Shown here piece after piece: positions 10,194-49,338 of a stretch of DNA of 64,000 nt. Numbering within the stretch: position 1 is the first letter of the stretch; each line of letters opens with the position of its first letter. The translations under genes were made by a program, and so were the position numbers. This stretch comes from Eubacteriales bacterium (GTDB taxonomy: Bacteria > Bacillota > Clostridia > Oscillospirales > QAKW01). The notes under the pieces were generated by a model. The model did no database searches. It was given only the letters and a program-made list of their open reading frames with translations, and was not told where the DNA came from. The stretch covers positions 1,734 through 65,733 of the forward strand of contig JAZUNB010000011.1 in NCBI GenBank assembly GCA_045603925.1, read 5' to 3'.

Positions 10194-10208
10194 ATCCTTA
10201 TCCCTTTT

Positions 10209-11411
10209 CTATTGTTGCGAAAGTAAATAGTCTGTAAACTGATCGGCCGCACGGGCAGAACGCCCGCCCTTGCGAAGAGCAAAGGCTTCGGCAAGAAGCT
10301 CTAGTTCATTGGGATCCTTCCCGATCCCCTTGACTTCTGCCAATTGATGAACGATCCGAAGGTAAAGCTCTTTATTGGGCTTGGAAAAGAGAACCGTCAG
10401 CCCAAAACGCTCCGAAAGAGAGATCAGTTCCTGCACCGTATCATTATGATGCACATCATCCCCCGAGCGATCCGAGAAGCTTTCCTTCACCAAATGGCGG
10501 CGGGTGCTGGTGGCATAGATCACCGTATTCTTATTACGCGCCGAAACCGACCCTTCCAATATTGCCTTTAGAGTGCTGAAATAATCGTCATTTTTATTGA
10601 AGGAAAGATCATCAATAAAGATAATAAACTTTAAAGGATTCCGGCTAAGCTCGTCCATAATCATCGGCAATTGAAGCACCTGCTCCTTGCGGATCTCGAT
10701 CAAGCGAAGGCCTTCCGAAGCTAAAAGGTTGGTTACCGCCTTCACTGTGGAGGACTTACCGGTACCGGCATCCCCGCAAAGAAGAATGTTGGCAGCGGGC
10801 TTCCCATTCAATAATGCGCGGGTATTATCAATGACCTGCTTGCGCTCTTCTTCATAGCCGATCAGATCCTCCAAAGAGATGGGATCTGCACTGCGAACAG
10901 GTACAATACTGCCATCCTGCAGGGTAAACATCCGATTGGATACAAAAATTCCGTAGCCAAACCGATGAACATCCTTGACCCGCGCTTCATAAAGCGCCGC
11001 AAAATCTTTGGCCTCATTTTCAAAGAGCGCAAGATAACCGACATGGCCCACCATCTCGGCAAGCTTTTGAGGTTCCAATGAAGAGATCGCCGAAAACAAA
11101 GCAAGTTCATTTTCAACACAGCGTTGCAAAACCGCAGGGATCGGTTCATTATGGGCTCTTAAGATCACATATTCATTTTCATCCTCAAACAATGCCTTTT
11201 GAAGATAATCGCTCAGGCAATGGGAAAATGAAAACAACGCGCCCACAAATGCGCTATAGCTATCGGCCAAGGCCACCTTATCTTCTGTTTTCAGATTTAA
11301 GAAACTGCGCAGGGCAACCATCGGCGGTTGCTGCAAAACATTGCGGAATACCACCACCGAGGAAAGCGCCATAGAAACATTCTTCCAATCCGAGATCATC
11401 GGGTTCGCCAC
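10209..11411 (-). CDS. DUF815-family P-loop ATPase with an uncharacterised ~170-aa N-terminal domain
   Basis: 400 aa. Walker A is LLCGDAGTGKSSTVKAV and the DUF815-typical block is FIIFIDDLSF...LKAILEGS. It lies 7 nt after leuB and 15 nt before ilvA. Confidence 0.75.
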   Translation of the reverse strand: MANPMISDWKNVSMALSSVVVFRNVLQQPPMVALRSFLNLKTEDKVALADSYSAFVGALFSFSHCLSDYLQKALFEDENEYVILRAHNEPIPAVLQRCVENELALFSAISSLEPQKLAEMVGHVGYLALFENEAKDFAALYEARVKDVHRFGYGIFVSNRMFTLQDGSIVPVRSADPISLEDLIGYEEERKQVIDNTRALLNGKPAANILLCGDAGTGKSSTVKAVTNLLASEGLRLIEIRKEQVLQLPMIMDELSRNPLKFIIFIDDLSFNKNDDYFSTLKAILEGSVSARNKNTVIYATSTRRHLVKESFSDRSGDDVHHNDTVQELISLSERFGLTVLFSKPNKELYLRIVHQLAEVKGIGKDPNELELLAEAFALRKGGRSARAADQFTDYLLSQQ

Positions 11412-11418
11412 ACTTTCA

Positions 11419-12492
11419 TCAGGCCAATTCAGCCAAAATCTTTTCGGTCATCTGGGTACAGGTCAGAGGCTCTTTACCAGCGGCCGCCAGATCAGCCGTT
11501 CTCCAGCCGTTATTTAATACGCGATCCACCGCATCCTCAATGGCGTCCGCCTCTTTTCCAAGATCAAAGGAATAACGAAGCATCATTGCCGCAGATAATA
11601 CGGTTGCAATGGGATTTGCTTTATTTTGCCCTGCAATATCGGGTGCAGAGCCGTGGATCGGCTCATACATTCCGCGGGTGCCATCTCCCAAAGAGGCGGA
11701 GGGCAGCATACCGATGGAGCCGGTGATCTGGGAAGCCTCATCCGAAAGAATATCCCCAAACATATTGGAGGTAACCACCACATCAAACTGCGCGGGATTC
11801 TTTACCAACTGCATGGCGGCATTATCCACCAGCATATCCTTGCAGGTTACATCGGGATAATCGGCGGCCATCTCATGAACCACCTTTCTCCAAAGACGGG
11901 AGGTCTCCAATACGTTGGCTTTATCGATGCTGATCACATTGCCGCGGCGTTTTTTCGCCGTTTCAAAAGCCACTCTTGCAATACGCTCGATCTCCAAGCG
12001 GCTGTAGCATTCGGTATCATAGGCCTCTTCGCCGTATTTTCCCTGGCGATAGCCGCGGTCCCCGAAATAGATGCCGCCGGTCAGCTCCCGCACGATCATC
12101 AGATCAAAGCCCTTCTCCACCAGATCTTCCCGCAAGGGACACTCTGCCTTCAAAGCAGGATAAAGCTTGGCAGGGCGCAGATTGGTATAAAGGCCCAATG
12201 CGGCGCGAATGCCTAGAAGCGCCTTTTCAGGGCGCTGATCACCGGGCAGAGTATCCCATTTGGGACCGCCTACCGCGCCCAGTAAAACACTGTCGCTGGC
12301 CAGGCAACCGTCTACCGTTTCCTGCGGCAGAGGCTTTCCGGTTGCATCGATGGCGGCGCCGCCGATGAGATAATCGGTAAACTGAAAAGTATGACCGTAT
12401 TTTTCACCGATCTTCTTCAGAACAGCAACTGCGCTGTCCACAATTTCGGGGCCGATTCCGTCCCCTTTTAATAAAGCGATATTATAGTTCAT
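11419..12492 (-). CDS. leuB: 3-isopropylmalate dehydrogenase
   Basis: The track ORF extends to 12588, but the conserved N-terminus [18 protein letters not shown] starts at the ATG at 12492, 7 nt after the leuD stop. This gives 357 aa. Confidence 0.9.
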
Positions 12493-12499
12493 GGTCTTA

Positions 12500-12994
12500 T
12501 CAGCGAATGCTGCCCTTTCTGATGGATTCAACCAAGCCGCCGTTGGTAATGATCTCTTGAATAAACGGCGGGAAGGGTTCGATTTCATAGGTGGCTCCGG
12601 TGGTCTTATTGCAGATCACACCGAGATCCATATCAGCCTCCACCTCATTTCCGTCGGCAATGGCTTCTGCCGCCTCGGGGCATTCCACAATGGCGAGCCC
12701 GATGTTGATGGCGTTGCGGTAAAAGATCCGCGCGAAGCTCTTGGCAATTACCAAGGAGATCCCACTCTCTTTAATGGCGATGGGCGCATGCTCACGGGAA
12801 GAACCGCAGCCGAAATTAAAACCGGCCACCATAATATCCCCGGGGGTTACCCGCTTGGTGAAGTTTACATCCAGGTCTTCCATACAATGGGAAGCCAATT
12901 CTTTTTTATCAATGGTATTGAGATAGCGGGCAGGGATGATCACATCGGTATCCACATTATCTCCGTATTTTATAACCGTTCCTGCAAATTTCAT
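12500..12994 (-). CDS. leuD: 3-isopropylmalate dehydratase small subunit
   Basis: 164 aa with [15 protein letters not shown] and [14 protein letters not shown]. It overlaps the leuC stop by 4 nt. Confidence 0.9.
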
Positions 12995-14262
12995 CCCAAC
13001 ACCTCCTCAACACCGGCGATCTTGCCGGCAATGGCACTTGCCGCGGCCACAGCAGGGCTGGCAAGATAAACCTCCGATTCGGGATCGCCCATACGACCCA
13101 CAAAATTCCGATTGGTGGTAGCCACCGCGCGCTCTCCCTTGGCAAGAATGCCCATATAACCGCCCAGACAAGGGCCGCAGGTGGGCGTTGAAACAACGCA
13201 GCCTGCCTCAATAAAGATCTTTAAAAGACCGGTCTCCAGCGCTTTCAGGTAAATATCCTGGGTAGCAGGAATAATGATGGCGCGCACATGGGAAGCGATC
13301 TTCTTTCCCTTCAGGATGGAAGCGGCCTCCTCCAGATCCTTATAATGACCGTTGGTGCAAGAGCCGATCACAACCTGATCGATCCGCACATCTCCCACCG
13401 CATCAATGGTGCGGGTATTTTCGGGAAGATGCGGGAATGCAACAGTAGAGGTAATGGCAGAGAGATCAATTTCAATGGTCTCCTCATATTCCGCATCGGC
13501 ATCGGCGGTATAAACCACCGGCTCCCGATCGGAATGTTCCTTAATATAAGCCAAGGTCTGCTCGTCCACCTCAAAAATGCCGTTTTTCGCGCCGGCTTCA
13601 ATGGCCATATTGGTAATGGTCAGCCGATCGTAAATGGACAGCGCAGCAACGCCCTCGCCGGTAAACTCCATAGACTTATAAAGGGCGCCATCCACCCCGA
13701 TCTTTCCGATAATATGCAGGATCACATCCTTACCGGAAACATAAGGATTCAGCTTTCCTTTCAGAACAAACCGAATTGCAGAAGGAACCTTCAGCCAAAC
13801 CTTACCGATGGCCATACCGGCGGCCATATCGGTAGAACCGACGCCGGTGGAGAAAGCGCCCAAAGCACCGTAAGTACAAGTATGGGAATCGGCGCCGATC
13901 ACAACATCGCCTGCAACCACCAGCCCTTTTTCGGGCAACAGCGCGTGCTCAATACCCATACGACCCACGTCATAAAAATGGGTCACTTCTTTTTCATTGC
14001 AGAAATCTCTGCACATTTTACATTGAACCGCGGCTTTGATGTCCTTATTGGGGGCAAAATGATCCATTACCATGGTCACCTTCTCCCGATCATAGACCTC
14101 CTCAAAGCCCATACGGTCAAATTCGCGGATCGCAACCGGAGAGGTAATATCGTTACCCAACACACGATCCAGATTTACCAATACCAACTGCCCTGCTTTT
14201 ACTTCATCCAAGCCTGCATGGGCGGCCAGTATTTTTTGTGTCATTGTCATAGCCATAGCCAT
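12991..14262 (-). CDS. leuC: 3-isopropylmalate dehydratase large subunit
   Basis: 423 aa of the aconitase family, with [16 protein letters not shown] and the cluster cysteines GSCTNG...CGPCLG. Confidence 0.9.
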
Positions 14263-14273
14263 TAAACTCCAAA

Positions 14274-15938
14274 TTATTTAATGTTGATGATCGCGCCGCG
14301 ATCGGCAGAAGACACCGCATCGGCATACCGTTTCAGATAACCGGTAATGTTGGTTTTCTTTTCAATGGGCATCTCTTCTTTTCTCTTTGCAAGCTCCTCA
14401 TCGGAGACTTTCAGGGTGATGGTATGGTTGGGAATATCAATGGCAATCATATCCCCTTCCTTTACATAGGCGATGGTACCGCCGCGCACTGCTTCGGGCG
14501 AAACATGCCCGATGGAAGCGCCGCGGGTCGCGCCGGAGAACCGACCGTCGGTAATCAGCGCAACCTCCTTGTCCAGACCCATTCCTGCAATCGCAGAGGT
14601 GGGAGAAAGCATCTCGCGCATACCGGGGCCGCCGGAGGGACCCTCATAGCGGATCACAACCACATCGCCGGCTTTGATCCCGCCGGCATAGATCACCTTA
14701 ATACATTCCTCTTCACTGTTGAAGACGCGGGCGGGCCCTTCATGGACCAGCATTTCTGCGGCAACAGCGCTTCTTTTAACCACGCACCCATCGGGGGCCA
14801 GATTCCCCTTCAGTACCGCAATACCGCCGGTTTCGCTATAGGGTTGATCGATAGGGCGGATCACCTGTTCATTCAGGTTGGAAACTCCCTCCAGATTCTC
14901 CCCTACGGTTTTGCCGGCACAGGTCATGCAATCGGTATGAAGAAGATTTTTCTTGGTCAGTTCCTTCAATACCGCATATACACCGCCTGCCTCTTCCAGA
15001 TCCTCCATAAAGGTGGGGCCTGCAGGAGCAAGATGGCAGAGATTGGGTGTTTTAGCGCTGATCTCATTGGCCATATCCAGATTCAAACGGATGCCGCATT
15101 CATTGGCAATCGCGGGAAGGTGCAACATACTGTTGGTGGAGCAACCCAGAGCCATATCGGCAGTCAGCGCGTTTTGGAATGCCTTCTCGGTCATAATATC
15201 CAAGGGGCGGATATCCTTGCGGATCAGCTCCATTACCTGCATACCTGCACGCTTGGCAAGCTCAATACGCTGAGAATATACTGCGGGAATGGTGCCGTTT
15301 CCTCTTAAGCCCATACCCAATACTTCAGTCAGGCAGTTCATGGAGTTTGCGGTATACATTCCGGAGCAAGAACCGCAGGTAGGACAAGTTTTACACTCAA
15401 ACTCGCGCAGTTTCTCTTCATCGATCTTGCCGGCCATATAAGAGCCAACCGCCTCAAACATGCTGGAGAGGCTGGTCTTCTTTCCGTTTACGCGCCCTGC
15501 AAGCATAGGACCGCCGCTGACAAAAACAGTAGGAATATTCAGCCGCGCGGCCGCCATCAGCAGACCGGGAACGTTTTTATCGCAATTGGGGACCATGACC
15601 AGGCCATCAAACCCATGAGCCATCACCATAGCCTCGGTGGAATCAGCGATCAGATCGCGGGTCACCAAGGAATATTTCATTCCCTGATGTCCCATGGCAA
15701 TTCCATCGCAAACCGCGATGGCGGGAAACACGATGGGGGTCCCCCCTGCCATCGCTACACCCAGCTTAACCGCCTCAGTGATCTTATCCAGATTCATATG
15801 ACCGGGCACGATCTCATTATACGAGCTCACAATACCGATCAACGGGCGGGAGGTTTCCTCCTCTGTTAACCCAAGGGCATGATAAAGGGAGCGGTGCGGC
15901 GCGTTATTTGCACCGCACACAATTGTATCTTTAACCAT
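14274..15938 (-). CDS. ilvD: dihydroxy-acid dehydratase
   Basis: 554 aa with [17 protein letters not shown] and TDGRFSG. Confidence 0.95.
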
Positions 15939-15954
15939 GATATCCTCCTGCCGA

Positions 15955-17500
<1,546 letters not shown>

Positions 17501-17504
<4 letters not shown>

Positions 17505-19168
17505 TCTCCTTTCCGAGTAATGATATCGTCCATCGAACCACCGGGAGGCAGCATCGGTAAGACGAATTCATCCTTATCGATCAGGCAATCGATCAGCACC
17601 GGTCCTTGACTGTTATTCGCCTCCACAAAGGCTTTTTCAAACTCTTCCTGGGTTGCGGCCCGCAAGCCCTTTGCGCCGAAGGCTTCCGCCAATTTCACAA
17701 AATCGGTCTTGCGTTCAAGGGTCGTATTGGAATAGTGCTGGTTGAAGAACAAGGTCTGCCATTGGCGAACCATTCCCAAAACACCGTTGTTCATTAAAAC
17801 AATGGTAACGGGAACCTGGTAGGAAACAGCTGTTGCCAATTCGTTCAGGTTCATACCAAAGCTTCCGTCGCCGGTGATCAGCACGGTTCTCTCCTTGGAG
17901 CCGACCGCCGCGCCGATGGCGGCACCCAGGCCAAAGCCCATGGTTCCGAGACCGCCGCTGGATACAAACTTGCGTGTCTTCTTGAATTTACAGTATTGCG
18001 CCGCCCACATCTGATGCTGACCCACATCGGTGGCAAACACCGTTTCGGGGTTGATATGCTTATTGATAATGCCGATCAGATCGCGGGGATTCAGATCCTC
18101 CCGCTTCTCTATGGCTGCGGCTTCTTCTGCCTTCAATTGCTCAATATAAGCCATCCATTCAGGGTGCTTTTGCGGATGCACCCGATCTGCCAGACGGTTG
18201 AAGGTATCCTGCACATCGCCGATAATTCCGGCGTGAATGGGGATATTCTTATTCAATTCCGAAAAATCAATATCGATATGAATGATCTTGGCATTGGGAG
18301 CATACTTGTTCTTATTCCCGGTAGCACGGTCGCTGAACCGAACACCGATGGCGATGATCAGATCTGCGTGGTGCTGGGCCATAGAAGAAGCATAATGACC
18401 GTGCATTCCCTGCATTCCCAGGAAACGGGGGCATTCACTGTCTACACCCGAGAGACCCATCAGCGTACATCCGATCACCCCATCGATCTTTTCGGCAAAA
18501 GCCGCAAGGTCATCGGAGATTCCGGCGCCGATGGCGCCGCCGCCGATATAAATATAAGGGCGTTCACTGCTGTTGATCAACTCTGCCGCTTTGGCGATCT
18601 CTTCCTCGGGAACGATCCGATTATCAAATTTCGGAGCAAGAGGCTTCGGTTCATAGTCATATTCCGCCGTTTGAATATCCTTGGGAATATCGAGCAACAC
18701 CGGACCCGGTCGCCCGCTGCGGGCAATACGATAGGCCTCGCGGATATTATCAGCCAGCTGGGAAATATCATTCACAAAATAATTATGCTTGGTAATCGGA
18801 AGGGTGATGCCGGTGATATCGATCTCCTGAAAACTGTCCTTACCGATCAAGCTGCAGGGTACGTTACCGGTAATGGCCAGAAGCGGAACCGAATCCAGCA
18901 TCGCGGTCGCAATACCGGTCACCAGATTGGTAGCGCCCGGACCGGAGGTGGCGATCACAACGCCAACCTTTCCGGTAGCGCGGAAGTAACCGTCTGCCGC
19001 GTGGGCAGCGCCCTGCTCATGGGCAGCCAGAAAATGATTGATCCGACTGCTGTTTTTATAAAGTTCATCGTAAATATTGAGCACCTGCCCGCCGGGATAG
19101 CCGAACACATCGGTCACACCCAGCTCGATCAAGGTCTCGATCACGATTTGTGCACCTGTCATTTTCAT
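17501..19168 (-). CDS. ilvB: acetolactate synthase large subunit (ThDP-dependent)
   Basis: 555 aa with GYPGG and the ThDP motif GDGSFGMNLNELAT. Confidence 0.9.
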
Positions 19169-20882: not shown

Positions 20883-21150
20883 AAAAAAAATCTCCCTTAC
20901 ACAAAACCGCAAATTTGTTTGTGTAAAAGAGACGAAGATTTCTCCGCGGTACCACTCTAATTGACGAATATATCGCCCGCTCTGACGCATCTATCAATGC
21001 GCTTCTCTGTAACGGGAGTACCCGGTCGAACCTACTAAAGCTTTTCAGCCGACAGCTCCGGGAGGAGTTATATACACCGCACTTATCGGCTCACAGCAAC
21101 CGCCGACTCTCTGAAAGCATCAAATGTATCTTTTTTCCCTTCATCGCTTT
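20883..21150 (-). promoter_or_regulatory. T-box riboswitch leader with intrinsic terminator, controlling the leuA...ilvA operon
   Basis: The minus strand carries the T-box sequence AATTAGAGTGGTACCGCGG (20962-20944). It also carries AGAGAG plus a distal-loop-like GGTTGCTGTGA in stem I. The terminator is TCTCTTTTACACAAA / TTTGTGTAAGGGAGA followed by U8; two of its pairs are G-U only in minus sense. The specifier could not be assigned with certainty; a CTC (Leu) around 21062-21067 is a candidate. Confidence 0.85.
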
Positions 21151-21156
21151 TATAAT

Positions 21157-22636: not shown

Positions 22637-22790
22637 GAATTGAATTACCTCCATTAGAATTTCAAAAAAATATGCTCTCAAAGACAGCATAACACCTTTG
22701 AGAGCATAAATATCCTAAGATATAAGCACTCCTCGGCGGGATATTAAGCCGCAAAACGGCACCTGCTGTCTACGAAGTATATTTTCGACT
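22637..22790 (-). promoter_or_regulatory. ribosomal protein L10 leader with attenuator terminator
   Basis: The 5' UTR starts after the promoter TTGACA (22824-22819), 17-nt spacer, TATGAT (22801-22796). It contains GTAGACAGCAGGTGCC...GGC, which looks like an rRNA mimic. A 12-bp hairpin (22672-22683 / 22696-22707) is followed by U8 immediately before the rplJ SD. This matches the Firmicute L10-leader attenuation layout. The assignment is from memory of the motif, not from a covariance-model search. Confidence 0.5.
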
Positions 22791-22831
22791 CAACAATCAT
22801 ACCACTATCGGGTATAATTGTCAAGACTTTT

Positions 22832-42639: not shown

Positions 42640-43555
42640 TCACCTCATTTTCTTTCTGAGAAGCGCTCTCTTCTGCCTCCTCTTCATTAACTGCATAGTC
42701 AAACTGCGGAACATACTGCGGCTTGTCCTCTGCCTTGGCAACTGCCAGCTTCAGGCGAGCAGGCTTTTTTACCCAAACAAAGACCAAGGTGCCAAAAGAA
42801 ACCAATGCCAGCGCCAAAGCAAGCACCATATTGATCCTCAAGCCGAAAATATGCAGATTATAGGCAACATCTCTCATCGGCTCCATCCAGGCGCGGCCGA
42901 TGCCATACCAGGTCATATACATCAAAAAGAGCTCGCCCTTATACTTACGGAAATCCATATAGCCGAGAATGATCAAAAGGCCCAGAAGATTCCAAAGAGA
43001 TTCATATAAGAACAGCGGATGAACATATTCGGCAATGCAGTCTACTCCGACACCCATCCGCCAAGGAAGCTCTGTTTGCACACCGAAGACCTCCACATTG
43101 GCGAAATTGCCCCAGCGGCCGATGATCTGACCGATCATAAAGCCGATGGCAACCAGATCCAGAAGATTCGGCAAAGAGATCTTTTTCACCTTGCAGAAAA
43201 CAGCGACCGCGAGAACGGCGCCCAAAACGCCACCGTAAATGGCAAGGCCGCCGTTCCAGACGCTGATCATATCCATAAAGGAATCAAAACTGTCCAGATC
43301 GCCCAATATGTACCATACCCGCGCGCCGATAAAGCCCGCAGGCAGACCCACCAGCATTCCGTCAATAATATCATCGCCCTTGATGTCAAACCGCTTCGCC
43401 AAGCGATCGCAGATGAAATAAGCGGCTAAAATGCCGATGCAGATAATAATAGCGTACCATTCAATGGTAATATTATCTGTTATTTTAAACGCAGTGGGAT
43501 TGATGGTAAATTCCCCGATCCCGAGACCGGGAAACGACACAGTATTATAATCCAC
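42617..43555 (-). CDS. lgt: prolipoprotein diacylglyceryl transferase
   Basis: 312 aa with GARxxY-, GRWGNF- and GxxRxxxE-type blocks and an acidic C-terminal tail. Confidence 0.9.
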   Translation of the reverse strand: MDYNTVSFPGLGIGEFTINPTAFKITDNITIEWYAIIICIGILAAYFICDRLAKRFDIKGDDIIDGMLVGLPAGFIGARVWYILGDLDSFDSFMDMISVWNGGLAIYGGVLGAVLAVAVFCKVKKISLPNLLDLVAIGFMIGQIIGRWGNFANVEVFGVQTELPWRMGVGVDCIAEYVHPLFLYESLWNLLGLLIILGYMDFRKYKGELFLMYMTWYGIGRAWMEPMRDVAYNLHIFGLRINMVLALALALVSFGTLVFVWVKKPARLKLAVAKAEDKPQYVPQFDYAVNEEEAEESASQKENEVIEDGEDH

Positions 43556-43556
43556 T

Positions 43557-44849
43557 TTATACTTCCTCCTTCAGGGGCTTGATCACCGAAAGACAACTGC
43601 GCTCCCGCGCAAACATTTCCTTTGCGCGGGAAAGCAGGTCCTCTGCAGTGATCTTTTTTAATGCTTCAATAGAATCCAAGGTAACAGCGCCGTTTAAATG
43701 ATTGCCGATGAATCGGTTGACCATTCCATAGGCATGGTCGGTCTCCTGCACCAAAGCGCCGTACAGCCCATTGCGGATCTCCTTGAACCGCTCTTCCTCA
43801 ACGCCTTTTTCAAAAAGCACATTGATATGGTGAAAGGCATGCTCTTCCACCGCCTTGGGATCATCGGTCTCCCCGTTGATGACACAAAAAGAGAAATAAT
43901 CCGAAAGATCATACCAGCAATCAAATTCGTTATTGATCAAGCCCTTTTCATAAAGTTCTTTATAGAACGGAGAAGACTTGCCAAACAAATACTCCAGCAA
44001 GATCTCTACTTCCATTTCCTTTTTGGCAAGGTCAAAGCCCTCTACATCGGTATGGTTGTCCTTAAAGCCGAGATGGAAAATAGGGCGGGAAACCAACATC
44101 TCTTTTTCGGTATAGCGTACCCTTGCGGCATCCGGCTCATGAATGGGAAGCTCAATGGATGCGCGCTTCTCCCCCGCCTCAAAATAGCGGTCAACCGTCT
44201 TCAAAACCTCATCCGGAGAAACATCCCCTGCAACTGCCAAAACCAGGTTTGCGGGATGATAAAAGGTATTATAGCAATCCATAAGGATCTCGGGGGTCAA
44301 GGAATAAATATCCTCCACCGTTCCGGCAATATCACGACAGATAGGATGCTCCTGATATAATCCCTGCACCATGGTAAAATACCCCTGCCAGCCGGGCTCA
44401 TCCTCATACATTTTGATTTCCTGTGCAATGATTCCCTTTTCCTTTTCCACATTCTCTTTCGTAAGATACGGATGGGTCACAAAAGAAAGCAATACATTCA
44501 GGTTTTCTTCAAATCGGTCACTGCACACAAAATAATATGCAGTTTTATCATTGGAGGTATAGGCATTAGCCTTAGCACCGGTCTTCCCGTAAAAATCAAA
44601 GGCGTTGCCTTCTTTTCCCTCAAAGAGCTTATGCTCCAAAAAGTGAGCCGTTCCGTTGGGAACCGAGACCTCACGCCCGTCTGCGGTGGTGAAGCAAAAA
44701 TTCACCGAGCCGAACTTGGTGGCGATCATAGCCGCCTTTTTTGCCTTTTGAGGCTTGTTCATATAGTAGATCGTAAGACCGCTGGGATGGATCCATTTCT
44801 GATATTCTTCCCCGATCGCCGCGCATTGATAGGTTGTAGTTTGCATCAT
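43557..44849 (-). CDS. M16-family zinc peptidase (active subunit)
   Basis: 430 aa with the inverted zinc motif HFLEH present. Confidence 0.85.
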   Translation of the reverse strand: MMQTTTYQCAAIGEEYQKWIHPSGLTIYYMNKPQKAKKAAMIATKFGSVNFCFTTADGREVSVPNGTAHFLEHKLFEGKEGNAFDFYGKTGAKANAYTSNDKTAYYFVCSDRFEENLNVLLSFVTHPYLTKENVEKEKGIIAQEIKMYEDEPGWQGYFTMVQGLYQEHPICRDIAGTVEDIYSLTPEILMDCYNTFYHPANLVLAVAGDVSPDEVLKTVDRYFEAGEKRASIELPIHEPDAARVRYTEKEMLVSRPIFHLGFKDNHTDVEGFDLAKKEMEVEILLEYLFGKSSPFYKELYEKGLINNEFDCWYDLSDYFSFCVINGETDDPKAVEEHAFHHINVLFEKGVEEERFKEIRNGLYGALVQETDHAYGMVNRFIGNHLNGAVTLDSIEALKKITAEDLLSRAKEMFARERSCLSVIKPLKEEV

Positions 44850-46108
44850 TGTTCGTTATGAACCCCTTTCAGTAAATAAACCGTATCCAATGCGATCTCC
44901 TTGGCAATCGCAATGATTTCTTCCTTAGTCACCATTCGGATCTCTTCGATTTCCTGCTCCGGAGTTTTCAACTCCCCGCGCACTGTTCCCGAAAGCATCT
45001 GAGCAGCCAGCGCGCTTTCATTATCGCATAAGCCATAGATGCTGTCGATCAGATAAGCCTTTGCATTTTCAAATTCCTCATCGGTCAGTGCCCCTTCAGC
45101 AATAGCCGAAAGCTGCGCCTCGATCTCCTTGCGCGCCTCCTCATACTTGGTCGATTCCACACCGCTGGATACAAACATCACATTCTTAAAACGATCCACA
45201 GTGGAGGAGCAGTAATAGCAAAGGGACAACCTCTCCCGCACATTCAAAAAGAGCTTAGAGGTTGCGCTTCCGCCGTAAACAACATTAAACAAACGGCAGG
45301 CGGCGCCCTTTTCCATGGCGGTTTTTCCCAATCGGAAGCCCAGATTCAACTTGCTTTGGTTCAGATCCATGGGCTCCACCACCTCCCGCACAGAAGGCCG
45401 GTCAAAAGAAACCGCTGTTTGCGGCATTTTTCCGCTCCGCCGGGAAAAGCCTTCCGCAAGCTCATTCAAAAAGCGGCCGTTCTCTTTACCCACATAAGTG
45501 ATCACAACAAAGGCCTCCTGCATCAGCTTGCAGAAATAAGAATAAAGGGAGCAATGATCAAAGCTCTTTACTGTTTCGATATCGCCCATTTCATGAACGC
45601 CATAGGCTTCATCACTGCACATCAACGCTTTGCAACGCTCCAGGGAATAAACGCGCTTATCATTGAACAGGCCATGGATCTTATCGATCAGATTTGCCTT
45701 TTCCTGCTCGGTATATTCCTTGGAAAAGCCATTATTCTCCACCAAGGGATGAAAGAGCATCTCCTTACAGAATGAAAGAATAGCCCCTTGAATATCCTCC
45801 TGCTCCAAGGCATACTCATTGTTGAGATAGGTAAACGAAAAGGACAAGATCTCAAGCTCCCCCGCTTTGGTGGCGCCCACAGAAAAAGAAGCTCCGTAAT
45901 TGCGCGCCAGATAGCGGCTGATCAGATCCATTTGAGGATATTTTGCGCATCCGCGGCTGAACACGCCCGCAAGAAGAGACATCCCGGTTGCATTTTCCGC
46001 CGAAAGCGGCATAAGAAAATCCACCGATAAATATCCGGTTTTAAAATGATCTGCAATTCCGTAATTGCAAACAACGCCTGTACGCGGCTGTTCCTGATAG
46101 AATTTCAT
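44846..46108 (-). CDS. M16-family peptidase-like protein (no HxxEH; probable non-catalytic partner)
   Basis: 420 aa with the insulinase fold pattern but no HxxEH. It overlaps the downstream M16 gene by 4 nt. Confidence 0.8.
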   Translation of the reverse strand: MKFYQEQPRTGVVCNYGIADHFKTGYLSVDFLMPLSAENATGMSLLAGVFSRGCAKYPQMDLISRYLARNYGASFSVGATKAGELEILSFSFTYLNNEYALEQEDIQGAILSFCKEMLFHPLVENNGFSKEYTEQEKANLIDKIHGLFNDKRVYSLERCKALMCSDEAYGVHEMGDIETVKSFDHCSLYSYFCKLMQEAFVVITYVGKENGRFLNELAEGFSRRSGKMPQTAVSFDRPSVREVVEPMDLNQSKLNLGFRLGKTAMEKGAACRLFNVVYGGSATSKLFLNVRERLSLCYYCSSTVDRFKNVMFVSSGVESTKYEEARKEIEAQLSAIAEGALTDEEFENAKAYLIDSIYGLCDNESALAAQMLSGTVRGELKTPEQEIEEIRMVTKEEIIAIAKEIALDTVYLLKGVHNEQ

Positions 46109-46185
46109 GAGAACTCCTTATATTTTACTTTAAACTATATTTTATCATAAAATCTATAAAAAGAAAAGTACCGGTTTCTATAAAT

Positions 46186-48993
46186 TCATGAACAATTTGT
46201 AACAAAGTAATCTTTCAATCGCTCAACGGTATTTTCCGCAATTTCTCTCGCTTTATCCTCATTGCAAAGCAATTCATAATCCAGAGGATTGCATAAATAC
46301 CCAACCTCCAGCATGATCGCCGGATATTTTGTCTGGCGGCAAACGCGAAGGCTCTGCCTGCGGCATATCATTGTTTCTGCAGCCACCCAATCGGCAATCC
46401 CTGCCGAGAGCGGAGAAGAATATAAGACCATACCGCCGGAGACTTTGGAAAAATCACCGCTTTGATCGGTGGAATTATGATGTACCGAAAGGAAGAGATC
46501 CGGCGTAAACTCTTCCGCCAATTCCACCCGTTTATCCAGCGAAAGCGTTTCCGCTCCCGCCGCCATCAGAGTCACCTCAGCTCCTGCATCGGTCAGTTCC
46601 TCAAAGAGATATTTAGCGAAGGTAAGATTCAGTTCGCTTTCAGCAGGGTATTCCGCGCCGCCTGCGCTGAGCGCACCGACATCCGCTCCCCCATGACCGA
46701 CATCCAGGAGGATCCGCTTCCCCTTCAGCTCATCGGTATGATACCGTAAGCATAATGTAATGCGATTTTTCTGCAAATAAACCTCATAACCCGCCAAAAC
46801 GCGCCCCGAAGCAGAGGTAACGGAAACAACGCTGTTTTGAGAACGACGGTTCAGTTTGACCGAAAGATCCCGATGCTCGGAATCGATCTCAACCTTCGCC
46901 TTCTGCCCGATCTTCAAAAAGATCTCCAGCGAAGGCTCGTTATATTCTGTATAATACGAAAAGTCTTCCTCACAGGAGATCACAACACGCTCATACGGAT
47001 AATCCAACGGTTCTTCCGCCGCCAAGGCTTCTGACCCCAGGGTTTCCTGCTCCACCCAAAAGCCGTTTTTCAAAAGAGCGCGAGTACCCTCCAGCCCGCA
47101 AACCGTCAATTCTGTCCCCAAGCGAAGGGGATCATGATCCATTTGAGACCCCTCAATGCTCTCATCAAAAATATAGGCATCGGACTTCAGCTCCATAGGG
47201 TTTTGATACCCTTCGGAATACAGATGAATATTGAGATCGGTTGCCAGGGTGCTTGTCTGCCCGTTGAGGGTAGCAATATAAGAAAAGCCATCCAACAAGA
47301 GCGTTTCTCCCTGAGGTAAAGAAGGCATCAGCCATTCTCCACGATAGAGACAAGGATCATTCTTTGTGGGCGTCAGCGGAACAGAGACCCATTGATTCTG
47401 AAAAACAACAGAAGAGCCTGCAGGTGCCTGCAAATAAACAGTCAAAACCTCCCCGGCGCCGCGATGGATGGCGCCGCTCGGATAAGCCCCTTGCATTTCG
47501 CCGATGGGCTCTGCCTCTTGATAAGTAACCGAGATGCTCTTCTCGGCGCCGCCGGATACGGCGGTTATGCGGTTAGAACCCTTGGAAAGAGGTACATACG
47601 CTGAAAAAAGCCCATAGGAATTGGTTACTGCGCGTATTCCGTTTACCGTAACCGCCTGCCCTGCAGGGGCTGTCCCCGTTACAGAGATTCTGCCTGCATT
47701 TACAGTCGTTCCGCTTTCGGGAGAAGTGATCTTCAACCCATCCGCCTTCTTCAATTCGATCGGTTGAATAAAATCAGCCGAATCATATAAAAATCGGTTC
47801 TCCCGTTTCTCCATCGGCTCTTCCCCGTTGTAATAAGAAAGAACCGCATCCAATGCGCCCAAGGGGTTTTCGATCATTGTTCCGTAGCGGAAAAAGCAAT
47901 GCCCCGCATAGCTTCTCTTTTTGGAGATATAATGAAGCTGACGGTTCATAATGATCCCGTCCTCAAAGCCAACCTCATCTGTACCCACCTTGTAAAGCGC
48001 CAAGCCGATATAAAGCTTCACCTTGTTTTTGACGCAAAGAGTATCCCACCAATCCACCAACACCCCAAAGGGTGCCGCTTTATGGTCAAAACTCCAATAC
48101 AACTGAGGGCAGATATAATCCAACCAGCCCTCCTCTACCCATTTTTTGCTATCGGCAAAAATATCGGAATAAGCACTGAGCCCCGTTGTTTCGCTTCCTG
48201 CGGGGTGAACCCATTTATTGGCCCAGATCCCAAAGGGGCTGATCCCGAATTGGCATTCCTTGCGGTGCTTTTTGATCACCGAGCCAACCTTGCTGACCAA
48301 CTGATCCACCGCATCCCGCCGAAAGTCTGCCAAGGAAAGACCCTTTCCATAGGCGGAATAAGCGGCACTGTCGTCAAAATCCTCGTTATTGTAAGGATAA
48401 AAATAATCATCAAAATGAATGCCGTCGATAGCATAGTTTCGGGCGATCTCCTCCACTCCATCCAAGATCAGCTTTCGCACCTCAGGAAGGCCGGGATTAT
48501 AATAAAGCCCATCTGCTGTTGTAACGGTATATTCCGGATGGAGAACTGCAGGGTTGTCTGCCGAAAGGCGGCTCCATACATTCGTTCCTGTTCCGATCCG
48601 ATAGGGATTGATCCAGGCATGAAGCTGAATCTTCGCTTTATGCGCCCTCTCAATGAAATAGGCCAAAGGGTCAAAGCCGCTGTCGGGAGCTTTTCCTTGG
48701 GTTCCCGTAAGATAAGCGCTCCAGGGAAAGATCTCCGAGCGATACAAAGCATCGCCGGTGGGCCGCACCTGAAAAAAGATGGTGTTCAGACCCATATCCT
48801 TGCAATTCTCAATAATCGCATCAATCTCATCCTTCAGCCCTTGGGAGGAAAGCCCCATCCGCGAGGGAAAATCAAGATTTCCCACCGAAGCCACCCAGCA
48901 GGCGCGTACCTCGCCCTCTTCAGCCGCCGCTTGCAACGGAAGCATAGAGAATACCATCACCCATATGCAGATAAAAATTCCGATTCTTTTCAT
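46186..48993 (-). CDS. secreted cell-wall enzyme: N-terminal glycosyl-hydrolase-like family 10 (GHL10/DUF187) domain fused to a C-terminal N-acetylmuramoyl-L-alanine amidase (Amidase_3)
   Basis: 935 aa with a signal peptide. The N-terminal ~400 aa look like YngK (RACWVASVGNLDFP...IHFDDYFYP). The C-terminus ILLDVGHGGADVGAL...SVHHNS...EVGYLCNP is the amidase_3 pattern. Confidence 0.75.
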   Translation of the reverse strand: MKRIGIFICIWVMVFSMLPLQAAAEEGEVRACWVASVGNLDFPSRMGLSSQGLKDEIDAIIENCKDMGLNTIFFQVRPTGDALYRSEIFPWSAYLTGTQGKAPDSGFDPLAYFIERAHKAKIQLHAWINPYRIGTGTNVWSRLSADNPAVLHPEYTVTTADGLYYNPGLPEVRKLILDGVEEIARNYAIDGIHFDDYFYPYNNEDFDDSAAYSAYGKGLSLADFRRDAVDQLVSKVGSVIKKHRKECQFGISPFGIWANKWVHPAGSETTGLSAYSDIFADSKKWVEEGWLDYICPQLYWSFDHKAAPFGVLVDWWDTLCVKNKVKLYIGLALYKVGTDEVGFEDGIIMNRQLHYISKKRSYAGHCFFRYGTMIENPLGALDAVLSYYNGEEPMEKRENRFLYDSADFIQPIELKKADGLKITSPESGTTVNAGRISVTGTAPAGQAVTVNGIRAVTNSYGLFSAYVPLSKGSNRITAVSGGAEKSISVTYQEAEPIGEMQGAYPSGAIHRGAGEVLTVYLQAPAGSSVVFQNQWVSVPLTPTKNDPCLYRGEWLMPSLPQGETLLLDGFSYIATLNGQTSTLATDLNIHLYSEGYQNPMELKSDAYIFDESIEGSQMDHDPLRLGTELTVCGLEGTRALLKNGFWVEQETLGSEALAAEEPLDYPYERVVISCEEDFSYYTEYNEPSLEIFLKIGQKAKVEIDSEHRDLSVKLNRRSQNSVVSVTSASGRVLAGYEVYLQKNRITLCLRYHTDELKGKRILLDVGHGGADVGALSAGGAEYPAESELNLTFAKYLFEELTDAGAEVTLMAAGAETLSLDKRVELAEEFTPDLFLSVHHNSTDQSGDFSKVSGGMVLYSSPLSAGIADWVAAETMICRRQSLRVCRQTKYPAIMLEVGYLCNPLDYELLCNEDKAREIAENTVERLKDYFVTNCS

Positions 48994-49000
48994 TGTCTCT

Positions 49001-49281
49001 CCTTAGGGCAGAGCGAGATATCCGGACCTCGTCTAAAAAGGCGGATTTTCACTCACTCTTCGTTAAAATACCCACCTATGGCCGGTATTAGTTGCGTTTG
49101 TGCCTTAACTGAGCAAAAATCCGCACTTTTTAGATCTTCGACCTCAAAACGAGGAGATTTCGAGAGATTTTTGCTCGATTTAGACGAAGCAAGGCTGACG
49201 CCTTGCGAGGATAAAGCGTGTAAAAAGCACCGAAATATGCCGTTTTGAGGCGGGTTCGGATTTCTCGCTCTACCCTAAAGG
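49001..49281. repeat. 281-bp imperfect palindrome (28/29-nt terminal inverted repeats plus nested internal inverted repeats): MITE-like element or structured 5' leader
   Basis: The left arm ccttagggcagagcgagatatccggacc (49001-49028) matches the reverse complement of 49253-49281 with 3 mismatches and 1 bulge. Internal pairs are 49142-49151/49238-49247 (cctcaaaacg/cgttttgagg), 49112-49122/49166-49176 (gagcaaaaatc/gatttttgctc), 49040-49048/49118-49126 (gcggatttt/aaaatccgc) and 49029-49037/49179-49187 (tcgtctaaa/tttagacga). A central hairpin lies at 49142-49154. Confidence 0.7.
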
Positions 49282-49300
49282 TTTATCTGCCTCATTCTAT

Positions 49301-49336
49301 GCAAAAAGTCTTATACAAATGTATAAGACTTTTTGC
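49301..49336 (-). terminator. perfect 16-bp hairpin immediately after the lipoprotein gene stop
   Basis: The stem is gcaaaaagtcttatac-aaat-gtataagactttttgc. There is no separate U-tract beyond the Us inside the stem. Confidence 0.5.
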
Positions 49337-49338
49337 AC

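Follow-up and report, generated by a model that had tools for sequence, protein, structure and literature searches.

A structured repeat next to the Shine-Dalgarno sequence of a clostridial cell-wall hydrolase gene is very probably a copy of a dispersed, TA-duplicating MITE family

The locus and the limits of the element

The window analyzed here is a 64,000-nucleotide stretch of DNA from a member of the Clostridia. On its minus strand lies the gene for a secreted cell-wall hydrolase, and the interval between this gene and a terminator-like hairpin of the gene upstream is largely occupied by a repeat with complementary ends. The features of the locus are given below.

46186 to 48993, minus strand: gene for the 935-aa secreted cell-wall hydrolase (GHL10 + Glucodextran_B + Amidase_3), with the insertion in its 5' UTR
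48999 to 49003, minus strand: native Shine-Dalgarno (SD) sequence AGGAG of the hydrolase gene, outside the element (present in empty sites)
49004 to 49277, minus strand: probable MITE copy of 274 nt, including the duplicated TA at both ends (family-profile nhmmer search, homology limits)
49004 to 49005, minus strand: 3' copy of the TA target-site duplication, with the native SD directly after it (empty-site comparison)
49006 to 49028, minus strand: 3' terminal inverted repeat (TIR; ...GGTCCGGATATCTCGCTCTGCCC), which is the 3' arm of the basal helix (repeat search, consensus fold)
49253 to 49275, minus strand: 5' TIR (GGGTAGAGCGAGAAATCCGAACC) (repeat search, family alignment)
49276 to 49277, minus strand: 5' copy of the TA target-site duplication (single TA in the empty site of locus L026)
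49300 to 49337, minus strand: terminator-like hairpin of the upstream gene, outside the element (18-bp perfect arms, A/T tracts)

The family profile scored the window copy at 299.6 bits on the minus strand and 67.3 bits on the plus strand (nhmmer). This profile sets the orientation that we call forward, and the forward strand of the window copy is the minus strand, which is also the sense strand of the hydrolase gene. Positions 49004 and 49277 are those at which homology to 20 or more copies elsewhere stops. The original prediction had placed the ends at 49001 and 49281, and the extra 3 to 4 nt prove to be flanking DNA that pairs by chance. Its description of complementary terminal arms with three mismatches is borne out by a repeat search, in which the 46-nt arms 49003-49048 and 49233-49278 are 74% complementary, with 3 mismatches in the outer ~26 nt. 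The TIRs of the window element are thus ~25 nt long and can be extended to 46 nt at 74%. A 24-nt arm pattern has only two sites in the window, with 0 expected by chance, and alignment shows the TIRs to be conserved in all family copies. Read together with the TA, the 5' TIR gives TAGGGTAG, which places stop codons in two frames.

The element has no coding capacity, as its open frames are only stop-to-stop stretches. Comparison of the longest frame with 5.8 billion proteins gave two matches (52 and 64 aa), both of which are themselves other copies.

A dispersed family in gut Clostridia

An exact TIR pattern matches 22 stretches in 7 MAGs, on several contigs per MAG and in many cases at contig ends. 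Full-length copies are 75-97% identical and are found in at least 7 Clostridia/Acutalibacteraceae MAGs, with 5-8 or more per MAG. RGIG4291 and SGB_487 each carry at least 7 and SGB_1799 carries at least 5, on different contigs and with unrelated neighbors. Shorter derivatives, reduced by deletion to ~160 nt and ~72 nt, retain the TIRs. The sample (~20 copies) was ascertained by exact match to one TIR, and all of its members come from fragmentary MAGs. A route through spurious ORFs gave two extra copies, one in reverse orientation (L029) and one from a diverged subfamily (L030), both of which lie outside the start-proximal pattern described below. A metagenome scan added only 3 further loci, one of them a duplicate, and plasmid and viral collections yielded no family matches.

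The genes downstream of the copies include those for SBP_bac_5, Band_7, PNPOx, ScpB, MurB, Mur ligase, AsnB, cohesin/dockerin, SDR, PALP, and a lyase. The idea of a regulon was dismissed after 13 downstream genes were annotated with Pfam and showed no common function. The original prediction had offered two readings, namely a structured leader or translational switch for the hydrolase gene and a MITE-like insertion that supplies the ribosome-binding site. The search for copies decides in favor of a MITE over a leader, because many dispersed copies lie beside unrelated genes.

The element has the size (a class of about 50-600 bp), the absence of coding capacity, the TIRs, the target duplication, and the dispersed copies by which MITEs are recognized. 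We consider it highly likely that positions 49004-49277 are a copy of a non-autonomous, non-coding transposable element whose family is dispersed in uncultured gut Clostridia. The family is a previously undescribed TA-duplicating MITE of Acutalibacteraceae and relatives, and a full-text literature search with the TIR sequence returned unrelated matches only. It thereby adds a mobile element to what is recorded for a poorly studied group. Because many copies sit at contig ends, the family also breaks MAG assemblies, and it could cause misannotation through upstream genes truncated at the TAG of the element, spurious internal ORFs, and possibly chimeric contigs at copies.

Empty and filled insertion sites

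Two orthologous loci lack the element. At the closest relative, L026, synteny is complete, the hydrolase is 79% identical, and the spacer is 74 nt; at L027, a 65% orthologue in full synteny, the spacer is 55 nt. Exact look-ups of the window's own proteins found none on record. The empty site of L026 reads ...GATATACAATT-TA-AGGAGAATCAATG (in short, ...AATT-TA-AGGAG..ATG, with a single TA), and the filled site of the window reads ...GATAAACCTT-TA[GGG..CCC]TA-AGGAGAGACAATG (in short, ...CCTT-TA[GGG...CCC]TA-AGGAG..ATG). From this comparison, which involves one nucleotide-level empty site, the target-site duplication is TA, and TA is present at both ends in all 15 copies that have both ends. The one empty site would fit either a TA duplication or the insertion, 3' of a TA, of an element with TA as its own last two bases, and these two cannot formally be told apart.

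An SD sequence is present at both empty sites (AAGGAG in L026 and GGGAG in L027). The MITE reading of the original prediction therefore stands with regard to the TIRs, the dispersed copies, and the TA duplication at the empty site. Its suggestion that the element supplies the ribosome-binding site does not, because AGGAG predates the insertion. The upstream terminator hairpin, which had been placed at 49301-49336, is real, spans 49300-49337, and is kept in the empty orthologous loci L026 and L027.

The window also holds the converse case.

10194 to 10208, minus strand: empty allele for a different copy of the family (the 15 nt that separate genes 10209-11411 and 8997-10193)

In MAG RGIG4291 (L005) a full copy occupies the orthologous junction, which makes the polymorphism reciprocal. 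At the hydrolase locus, the insertion occurred at a TA one base upstream of the pre-existing SD and downstream of the terminator of the upstream gene. An insertion between terminator and SD means that any transcript reaching the hydrolase gene carries the element in its 5' UTR. Scans found neither a sigma-70 promoter between the terminator and the element in the window nor, on the genic strand, a promoter-like site within the window copy. In the search for such a promoter, a conserved CATA(G/A)AAT motif was noted.

The fold of the element

Two large hairpins make up most of the interior of the element.

49141 to 49251, minus strand: internal hairpin A, alignment A1 columns 28-139 (RNAalifold consensus, compensatory pairs)
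49032 to 49134, minus strand: internal hairpin B, A1 columns 146-254 (inverted repeats, RNAalifold consensus)

The 316-nt region that includes them has a minimum free energy of -126.5 kcal/mol, compared with -80.8 +/- 4.8 for shuffled sequences (z = -9.5). However, the opposite strand folds equally well (-125.5 kcal/mol), and the fold is therefore uninformative with regard to an RNA of either strand. The most stable architecture is a Y formed by a basal stem and two ~105-nt hairpins, with a rod-like alternative that is 13 kcal/mol weaker. The most stable fold is not the single imperfect palindrome, centered on 49142-49154, that had been proposed at the outset. Hairpin A has 10-nt perfect arms (49142-49151 and 49241-49250). 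The earlier observation that some segments have two possible partners was accurate, as 49104-49130 can pair with either 49035-49055 or 49166-49183; that is, the 5' arm of hairpin B has the loop of hairpin A as its alternative partner (49166-49183 with 49104-49121). This alternative helix is kept across the family, with 93% of cells paired versus 34-58% in slid controls, and it includes 3 covarying pairs.

Consensus folds reach -113.0 kcal/mol for the sense strand and -116.0 kcal/mol for the antisense strand, with 19 compensatory pairs on each, and the antisense strand is slightly more stable in the full, short, and mini variants alike. A signature of selection on a transcribed strand, where G-U would be tolerated and A-C avoided, is absent, with pairing equal on both strands. 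The internal hairpins and the alternative helix are more structure than transposase binding alone needs. Nonetheless, the nested hairpins would seem to be a property of the mobile element, kept by compensatory change on both strands, rather than an adaptation of the hydrolase gene.

The original prediction had matched the element to no riboswitch class, and neither did Rfam. A permissive scan of the region gave nothing above E = 0.07 or near a gathering score, and when the whole window was scanned at the gathering threshold there was no match to the element, where the palindromes produce only chance-level miRNA and sRNA matches. A T-box and an L10 leader are present elsewhere in the window according to Rfam.

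The Shine-Dalgarno sequence of the hydrolase gene

The placement of SD nucleotides inside the basal helix holds for the window copy. According to the partition function, this AAGG of AAGGAG pairs completely with CCUU of the 5' flank (P unpaired = 0.0). It is this CCTT flank (49278-49281), complementary by chance, that is predicted to draw the upstream half of the SD and the TA into the basal helix, and the predicted mean accessibility of the SD in the window is 0.27 with the element versus 0.72 without it. These values, the very stable fold, and the conserved, mutually exclusive alternative helix are what could be expected of a cis-regulatory leader that evolved for the hydrolase gene, in which the basal helix sequesters the SD and the alternative pairings form an ON/OFF switch. 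However, SD accessibility is predicted to be unaffected in most other copies, and sequestration was rejected as a family property because it is clear in the window copy only and partial in L005. The element is absent from the syntenic 79% and 65% orthologues, its 75-97% identical copies precede at least 13 functionally unrelated genes, and the TA duplication marks an insertion. Furthermore, 14 nt of the SD-proximal arm (TATCTCGCTCTGCC, in the 3' TIR) are missing from a conspecific strain that is 98.6% identical (L028), no Rfam family matches, and the signature of selection on the sense strand is absent. Because the orthologous sites are empty, a gene-specific evolved leader is refuted, and we accord the idea only the faintest residual probability.

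The element is thus not a dedicated leader, because a mobile copy landed on a TA before the ribosome-binding site of the hydrolase gene. Burial of AAGG would then be a by-product of the insertion site, with at most a mild drop in translation or a change in mRNA stability as a consequence. A side effect of this kind on translation or stability of the hydrolase mRNA is physically plausible. For the hydrolase locus, this removes a false lead, as the large structure is a recent transposon insertion and not a new riboswitch class.

Position and orientation of the copies

The copies are not placed evenly with respect to genes. Sixteen of 20 lie no more than 31 nt upstream of a start codon, compared with 20% of non-coding TA sites (p = 1.6e-8), and their orientation relative to the downstream gene is 14:2 in favor of co-orientation (p = 0.004). 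Fourteen lie directly upstream of a co-oriented start, and only 2 of ~20 adjoin the end of a convergent gene. The copies L025, L017, and L029 are opposite to the neighboring gene start. The target flank is asymmetric (TA|RGGR), with 76% purine versus 49%. The statistics, from ~20 copies, show an accumulation of the family at TA sites that lie 0-25 nt before SD sequences, mostly in co-orientation with the downstream gene.

Among these sites are zero-length operon junctions, where the TAGGGTAG end restores a stop codon to the gene upstream. At L012, L007, L005, and L011 the preceding ORF terminates in the first TAG of the element, and at L009, L003, and L013 in the second TAG. At other sites a promoter immediately precedes the element; the distance from promoter end to element is 8 nt at L014, where the promoter scores 12/12, and 6 nt at L001, where it scores 10/12 and has a TG.

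The start-proximal pattern may come from target choice by the transposase or from survival of harmless insertions only. A symmetric TA target and near-identical TIRs do not predict the 14:2 orientation bias. Polarity was considered as its cause and found insufficient. Terminator-like motifs in the element number 8 in the forward and 18 in the reverse orientation, and the short variants, which have none in either orientation, are still co-oriented. Perhaps the transposition machinery actively targets a TA just 5' of SD sequences (TA|RGGR) in a fixed orientation, such that TAGGGTAG restores the upstream stop and the ribosome-binding site stays intact, although we regard this proposal as tentative and rather doubtful. 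If it is true, the family would exemplify a TIR transposon that translation signals direct to its targets in a specific orientation, and it would be adapted to the tightest operon junctions and the shortest 5' UTRs that compact genomes have, including those upstream of essential genes. Always co-transcribed as a large structured RNA, it would serve translation initiation regions as a natural insulator or modulator that is itself mobile.

Another explanation is that the family has been domesticated as a forward-transcribed intercistronic or 5'-UTR RNA module (an RNase III or RNase Y site, or a 5' stabilizer) that tunes or uncouples the downstream gene. Orientation bias, SD adjacency, and structure conservation would then all result from selection for this role. 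The start-proximal, co-oriented placement is in keeping with such a function, as are the copies that alone form the 5' UTR, from a consensus promoter to the SD, the 19 compensatory pairs retained across 75-97% identical copies, and the copies in operon junctions upstream of the essential MurB, Mur ligase, and ScpB genes, which must be transcribed through. There is precedent in the orientation-dependent effects of ERIC on mRNA and in the cleavage of Correia elements by RNase III (PMC2229807, PMC3049150). However, the fold lacks strand asymmetry, with the antisense strand slightly better in all three size variants; the 3' arm decays freely, both between copies and within the species at the window locus; and the same loci in close relatives have no element. 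Domestication therefore strikes us as unlikely.

If the distribution is true in complete genomes, the target choice of this MITE would be unusual and the opposite of the pneumococcal "safe haven between convergent genes". The family would then also provide natural filled/empty pairs for the effect of a 270-nt hairpin, one base from an SD, on translation, operon polarity, and mRNA decay.

Mobilization

The family is probably mobilized in trans by a TA-duplicating DDE transposase that recognizes GGGTAGAGCGAG... ends. A TA duplication is a feature of MITEs derived from IS630/Tc1-mariner elements and is found here. It is not exclusive to them, as some IS5-family groups give 2- to 3-bp duplications that contain TA. 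Judged from the 2-bp TA duplication alone, the transposase would most likely be IS630/Tc1-mariner-like, and one from the IS5/IS427 group is possible. An autonomous partner, that is, a TIR pair flanking a transposase-sized ORF, was not found in 30 loci.

We also considered that the family might derive, as a non-autonomous element, from a single-strand Y1/HUH transposon (IS200/IS605 "PATE" or REP/RAYT-like), inserted strand-specifically 3' of TA on the lagging-strand template. The bias of genes toward one strand in Firmicutes would then be reflected in the co-orientation with genes. This notion draws on the strong orientation bias, on a GTAG motif in the terminus (TAGGGTAG), on hairpins that compensatory change has retained on both strands, a pattern to be expected of a structure that matters in single-stranded DNA, and on the single empty site, which fits TA-adjacent insertion as well as TA duplication. 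Yet the ends are long, near-perfect TIRs that pair together over 25 or more nt rather than independent subterminal hairpins, TA is on both sides of every copy, two or three copies are opposite to the neighboring gene start, and strand-specific insertion leaves the proximity to start codons unexplained. We judge such an origin to be quite improbable. Identity with REP/BIME (RAYT-associated) or IS200/IS605 PATE repeats was rejected on the same mutually complementary ends and flanking TA, with orientation bias as the sole common feature.

Comparison with known repeat families

Among described elements, RUP, a pneumococcal MITE attributed to IS630-Spn1, resembles the Clostridia family in being small, non-coding, and multi-copy, in its duplex-forming TIRs and TA insertion, and in its presumed mobilization in trans (PMC2229807, PMC3049150). 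In contrast, RUP is 107 bp long, has a simple fold, and is unrelated in sequence, whereas the Clostridia element is ~274 nt long with two internal hairpins, and it has no known counterpart to IS630-Spn1. RUP copies are concentrated in the intervals between convergent genes and in the neighborhood of IS elements, and only ~61% of them follow the coding strand (PMC3049150).

ERIC/IRU of Enterobacteria and Correia/NEMIS of Neisseria are likewise imperfect-palindrome, MITE-like elements that are co-transcribed and form long RNA hairpins via their ends; ERIC has orientation-dependent effects on mRNA stability or processing, and Correia elements are cleaved by RNase III (PMC2229807, PMC3049150). They are shorter (127 bp for ERIC and 100-155 bp for Correia), unrelated to the Clostridia family in sequence and host, and both occur in both orientations. 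Correia elements also carry IHF sites and promoters, unlike the window copy, which has no promoter-like site on the genic strand.

Neisseria REP2 and the Borrelia IR share with the Clostridia family its dispersal, two internal stem-loops, and a constant orientation directly in front of many genes (PMC3184786). REP2 is without TIRs and brings its own promoter, ribosome-binding site, and ATG, whereas the Clostridia element has TIRs and a target duplication and uses the SD and start codon of the host. A REP2-type identity was rejected because the SD and ATG are host sequence at the empty site, no internal promoter-like site is present, and TIRs are.

BOX of S. pneumoniae is modular (boxA-B-C), is without a demonstrated TA duplication, and is not concentrated beside ribosome-binding sites. 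It resembles the Clostridia family in that the repeat provides a stop codon to the gene upstream. BOX elements contain the ends of 36 pneumococcal CDSs (PMC3049150), and the TAGGGTAG terminus of the Clostridia element contains those of at least 7 upstream ORFs.

An inserted MITE precedes the hydrolase gene

The palindromic element upstream of the hydrolase gene is a bacterial MITE. It is about 274 nt long and non-coding, carries terminal inverted repeats, exists in multiple copies, is polymorphic for presence, and is flanked by a duplicated TA, which are the defining features of such elements. The original prediction offered two readings, one of a structured 5′ leader or switch and the other of a MITE-like insertion that supplies the ribosome binding site. 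The latter stands with regard to the terminal repeats, the copy number, and the TA duplication, but the ribosome binding site is native rather than supplied by the element, as AGGAG is present in the empty site. Of main interest are the unusual distribution of insertion sites and, at the hydrolase gene, the naturally occurring alleles with the element present, absent, or shortened in one arm. The relevant features of the window are as follows.

46186-48993, minus strand: hydrolase gene (935-aa protein with GHL10, Glucodextran_B, and Amidase_3 domains)
48999-49003, minus strand: native Shine-Dalgarno (SD) sequence, AGGAG
49004-49277, minus strand: the element, 274 nt, with TA at each end
49003-49048 and 49233-49278: terminal arms, 46 nt, 74% complementary (inverted-repeat search)
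49300-49337: perfect hairpin with 18-bp arms (inverted-repeat search), between the upstream gene and the element
20925-21153, minus strand: T-box leader, 127 bits, above the Rfam gathering threshold
22659-22793, minus strand: ribosomal protein L10 leader, 59.5 bits, above the Rfam gathering threshold

The inverted repeat originally reported is borne out by these arms and by the fold of the region, whose minus-sense (genic) RNA reaches -126.5 kcal/mol compared with -80.8 +/- 4.8 for shuffles (z = -9.5). The same search recovered the hairpin and the internal pairs (I3, I4, and I7) that had been described. Across the 64 kb, a 24-nt pattern taken from one arm finds the two arms and no other site, and chance alone would give no match. 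The opposite strand folds at -125.5 kcal/mol (z = -8.6) and, because both strands fold equally well, an RNA structure and a DNA palindrome are not separable by the fold alone. An Rfam scan of the element, proposed as a check, matched no riboswitch or other RNA family, and its best matches are chance-level miRNA models on palindromes. Over the whole window, the only families that pass gathering thresholds are the T-box and L10 leaders, both located elsewhere. These two leaders confirm that the window is of Firmicutes/Clostridia origin.

Hydrolase homologues were searched, and their loci were retrieved for comparison with the window. The element is absent from the orthologous loci L026 (from SGB_1799; hydrolase identity 79%) and L027 (65%), in which gene order is fully shared with the window (D-Ala-D-Ala carboxypeptidase, pseudouridine synthase, two small genes, hydrolase, two M16 peptidases, and Lgt). 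The spacer before the hydrolase gene is 74 nt in L026, 55 nt in L027, and 345 nt in the window. The empty site in L026 reads ...TTTTTGCATAAAATGAGGCAGATATACAATT-TA-AGGAGAATCAATG, and the filled site in the window reads ...TTTTTGCATAGAATGAGGCAGATAAACCTT-TA[GGG...CCC]TA-AGGAGAGACAATG. The single TA in L026 versus the TA on both sides in the window indicates that the element inserted at a TA that is now duplicated, and that the AGGAG sequence predates the insertion. TA is found at both boundaries in all 15 copies with two readable ends. The insertion at the hydrolase locus is recent, because SGB_1799 has none there, although its genome contains five or more copies at other places, with 90-97% identity to that of the window.

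The window also holds an empty allele of another insertion. Locus L005 (RGIG4291), which is syntenic with window 9772-19168, carries a copy (L005 437-717) at the junction of two genes whose window counterparts (10209-11411 and 8997-10193) have only 15 nt between them (10194-10208). In the filled allele, the upstream protein stops three residues early relative to the window, at the element's TAG. An arm-deleted allele occurs in the conspecific strain L028 (Logan SRR12277017), which is 98.6% identical to window 43186-49054 over 5.9 kb. Its contig breaks inside the element at the hydrolase-locus site (L028 1-48), and in its copy 14 nt (TATCTCGCTCTGCC) are missing from the outer 3′ terminal repeat, beside the SD. 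The loss may reflect decay of a copy that has become immobile, or it may be compensatory and leave the SD free.

Mobilisation would occur in trans, through a DDE transposase whose family duplicates TA and is most likely IS630/Tc1-mariner-like. Some IS5-family groups, which also qualify as TA-duplicating, are the alternative. No autonomous partner was found among the 30 loci examined, and the terminal-repeat sequence has no occurrence in the searchable literature.

Copies, variants, and hosts

A degenerate 21-nt pattern covering both arms, run against one genome per GTDB species, matched 22 stretches in about seven MAGs: Clostridia RGIG4291 and RGIG4652 (roe deer gut), Acutalibacteraceae SGB_487, SGB_2841, and SGB_2286, Eubacteriales SGB_1799, and a Clostridiaceae MAG. 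Each MAG has matches on several different contigs, and many matches lie <200 nt from a contig end, which is typical of assembly-breaking repeats. A metagenome scan added just three loci, and the pattern found zero copies in the viral contigs and plasmids scanned. By blastn, which had been suggested for assessing copy number, and by an nhmmer profile, the dispersed copies share full-element homology at 75-97% identity that ends at the same two positions in all copies. Copy orientation is clear from the profile (~300 bits forward versus ~70 reverse). Variant forms are as follows.

L001, L013, and L020: ~160-nt deletion variants, without the inner arms
L012 2096-2167: 72-nt mini version in which each terminal repeat is reduced to its outer 14 nt
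L011 and L022: truncated copies
L020 5505-5735 and L030: diverged relatives

Every full copy ascertained by the pattern has the same 5′ terminal repeat (columns 2-25 of A1, the alignment of full-length copies), whereas in the 3′ repeat (columns 259-282) nearly every copy differs, each at another position. This asymmetry results in part from ascertainment by exact-match scan. The L030 copy (about 449-720; JGI 3300024272) represents a diverged subfamily that scores 218 bits to the family profile over positions 18-263 and has perfect 20-nt outer repeats distinct from those of the family (GGTGATAAGAATAATCCAAA / TTTGGATTATTCTTATCACC). At L020, two family members lie on either side of a single asparagine synthase gene: the short variant (3479-3642) lies 31 nt before its start, and the diverged element, with ends like TTAAACCCGAACC...GGTTCGGGTTTAA, begins 1 nt past its stop codon. 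A terminal-repeat-like remnant (TTAGGGTGAGCAATCAAACCCGAACCC; L006 177-207) abuts the 5′ end of the L006 copy, which suggests a nested or tandem insertion. Furthermore, an identical 59-nt upstream flank occurs in two MAGs (L013 3958-4016 and L021 1-59), with a short variant before a Mur ligase gene in L013 versus a full variant before scpB in L021. Because a k141 contig begins with the L021 flank, the shared flank is probably an assembly-graph overlap at the repeat; otherwise, it would reflect recombination between copies. This case is a warning of chimeric MAG contigs at these elements.

Conserved pairing

A structure alignment of 11 full copies (mean column identity 87%) gives a Y-shaped consensus fold, in which the terminal repeats form a basal stem of ~25 bp that is joined to two ~105-nt hairpins, with compensatory double changes in 19 of 97 pairs. 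The alternative pairing proposed for internal segments is also conserved, being 92.9% paired versus 34-58% in slid controls and including three covarying pairs. In it, the hairpin A loop is paired with the 5′ arm of hairpin B, and the resulting rod-like fold is less stable than the Y by 13 kcal/mol in the window copy. The consensus energy is -116.0 kcal/mol for the reverse complement versus -113.0 kcal/mol for the sense strand, with 19 compensatory pairs in each, and the antisense folds slightly better in the short and mini variants. The pairing is thus maintained, either under selection or through the way in which the element propagates, and no feature ties it to sense-strand RNA.

Distribution of insertion sites

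In 14 of the ~18 non-redundant copies with a readable 3′ end, a co-oriented, SD-preceded start codon lies 7-31 nt past the 3′ TA. As a null model, we took every TA dinucleotide in the non-coding space of the same 215 kb. Start-proximal positions (<=31 nt upstream) hold 16 of 20 copies versus 20% of null sites (p = 1.6e-8), in a small sample from fragmentary MAGs that was ascertained by exact match to one terminal repeat. The start-proximal copies are forward in 14 cases and reverse in two (L025 and L017; p = 0.004), and only two copies (L016 and L010) abut the end of a convergent gene. Two extra copies, found via spurious ORF calls, fall outside this pattern: that of L029 is reversed relative to its neighbouring genes, and the diverged L030 copy adjoins an apparent 23S rRNA start, ~150 nt upstream of sequence resembling the 23S rRNA 5′ end. 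Reconstructed targets are asymmetric (approximately TA|RGGR), with 76% purine in the gene-proximal flank versus 49% in the other.

A co-directional upstream ORF often enters the element and ends at the element's own TAG.

L012, L007, L005, and L011: stop at the first TAG of TAGGGTAG
L009, L003, and L013: stop at the second TAG of TAGGGTAG

In other copies, 5-30 nt separate the end of the upstream ORF from the element. When the flanks are joined across the insertion in L009 and L003, classic ATGA stop/start overlaps are restored, and thus these copies occupy former zero-length operon junctions and clip a few C-terminal codons. Some copies occupy an entire 5′ UTR: the distance from the end of the promoter to the element is 8 nt in L014, where the promoter is a 12/12 match (TTGACA-17-TATAAT), and 6 nt in L001, where it is a 10/12 match and has an extended -10.

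The start-proximal, co-oriented pattern could arise from transposase target choice, replication-strand linkage, or selection. Terminator-like motifs are about twofold more numerous in the reverse orientation (18 versus 8 forward over 14 copies). Polarity is nevertheless rejected as a sufficient cause of the orientation bias, because the short variants have zero such motifs in either orientation and are still co-oriented.

This distribution is the opposite of that of the pneumococcal BOX, RUP, and SPRITE repeats and IS elements, which occur significantly more often than expected between convergent genes and of which just ~61% follow the coding strand (PMC3049150). Like the family described here, RUP uses a TA target, and it has been attributed to IS630-Spn1 (PMC2229807, PMC3049150). 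BOX resembles the family in supplying stop codons (PMC3049150). Further analogues are the ERIC and Correia elements, which are co-transcribed palindromic MITEs with orientation-dependent RNA effects (PMC2229807, PMC3049150). Neisseria REP2 lies directly upstream of genes in a fixed orientation but differs in having its own promoter, RBS, and ATG and in lacking terminal repeats (PMC3184786).

Effect on the hydrolase gene

In the window copy, the TA and a chance-complementary flank, CCUU, lengthen the basal helix into the SD bases AAGG. The claim that the SD is held in the basal helix is upheld for this copy by computation: the unpaired probability of the four AAGG bases is 0.0, and mean accessibility at positions -14 to -4 is 0.72 for the reconstructed empty site and 0.27 with the element. 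A side effect of the insertion on hydrolase mRNA is plausible.

The reading of the element as a dedicated leader or riboswitch finds no support. The computed SD/AUG accessibility is unaltered by the element in L012, L014, L003, L001, L013, and L020, and genes downstream of other copies have no functional relation to each other (solute-binding protein, SPFH, PNPOx, ScpB, MurB, Mur ligase, asparagine synthase, cohesin/dockerin, SDR, a PLP enzyme, and a lyase). This copy-specific SD pairing and these unrelated genes, together with the empty orthologous loci and the 3′-arm deletion in the conspecific strain, rule out an evolved leader for the hydrolase gene.

A motif, GCATA(G/A)AATGAGGCAGATA, is conserved at the three orthologous loci (window 49282-49300, minus strand; L026 2965-2985; L027 2985-3005) and in each shares sequence with the 3′ arm of the terminator hairpin upstream. 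A search for a sigma-70 promoter at this motif found none. The hydrolase gene might therefore be driven by an alternative sigma factor, possibly one for sporulation, to which the CATAnnnT-like -10 would belong.
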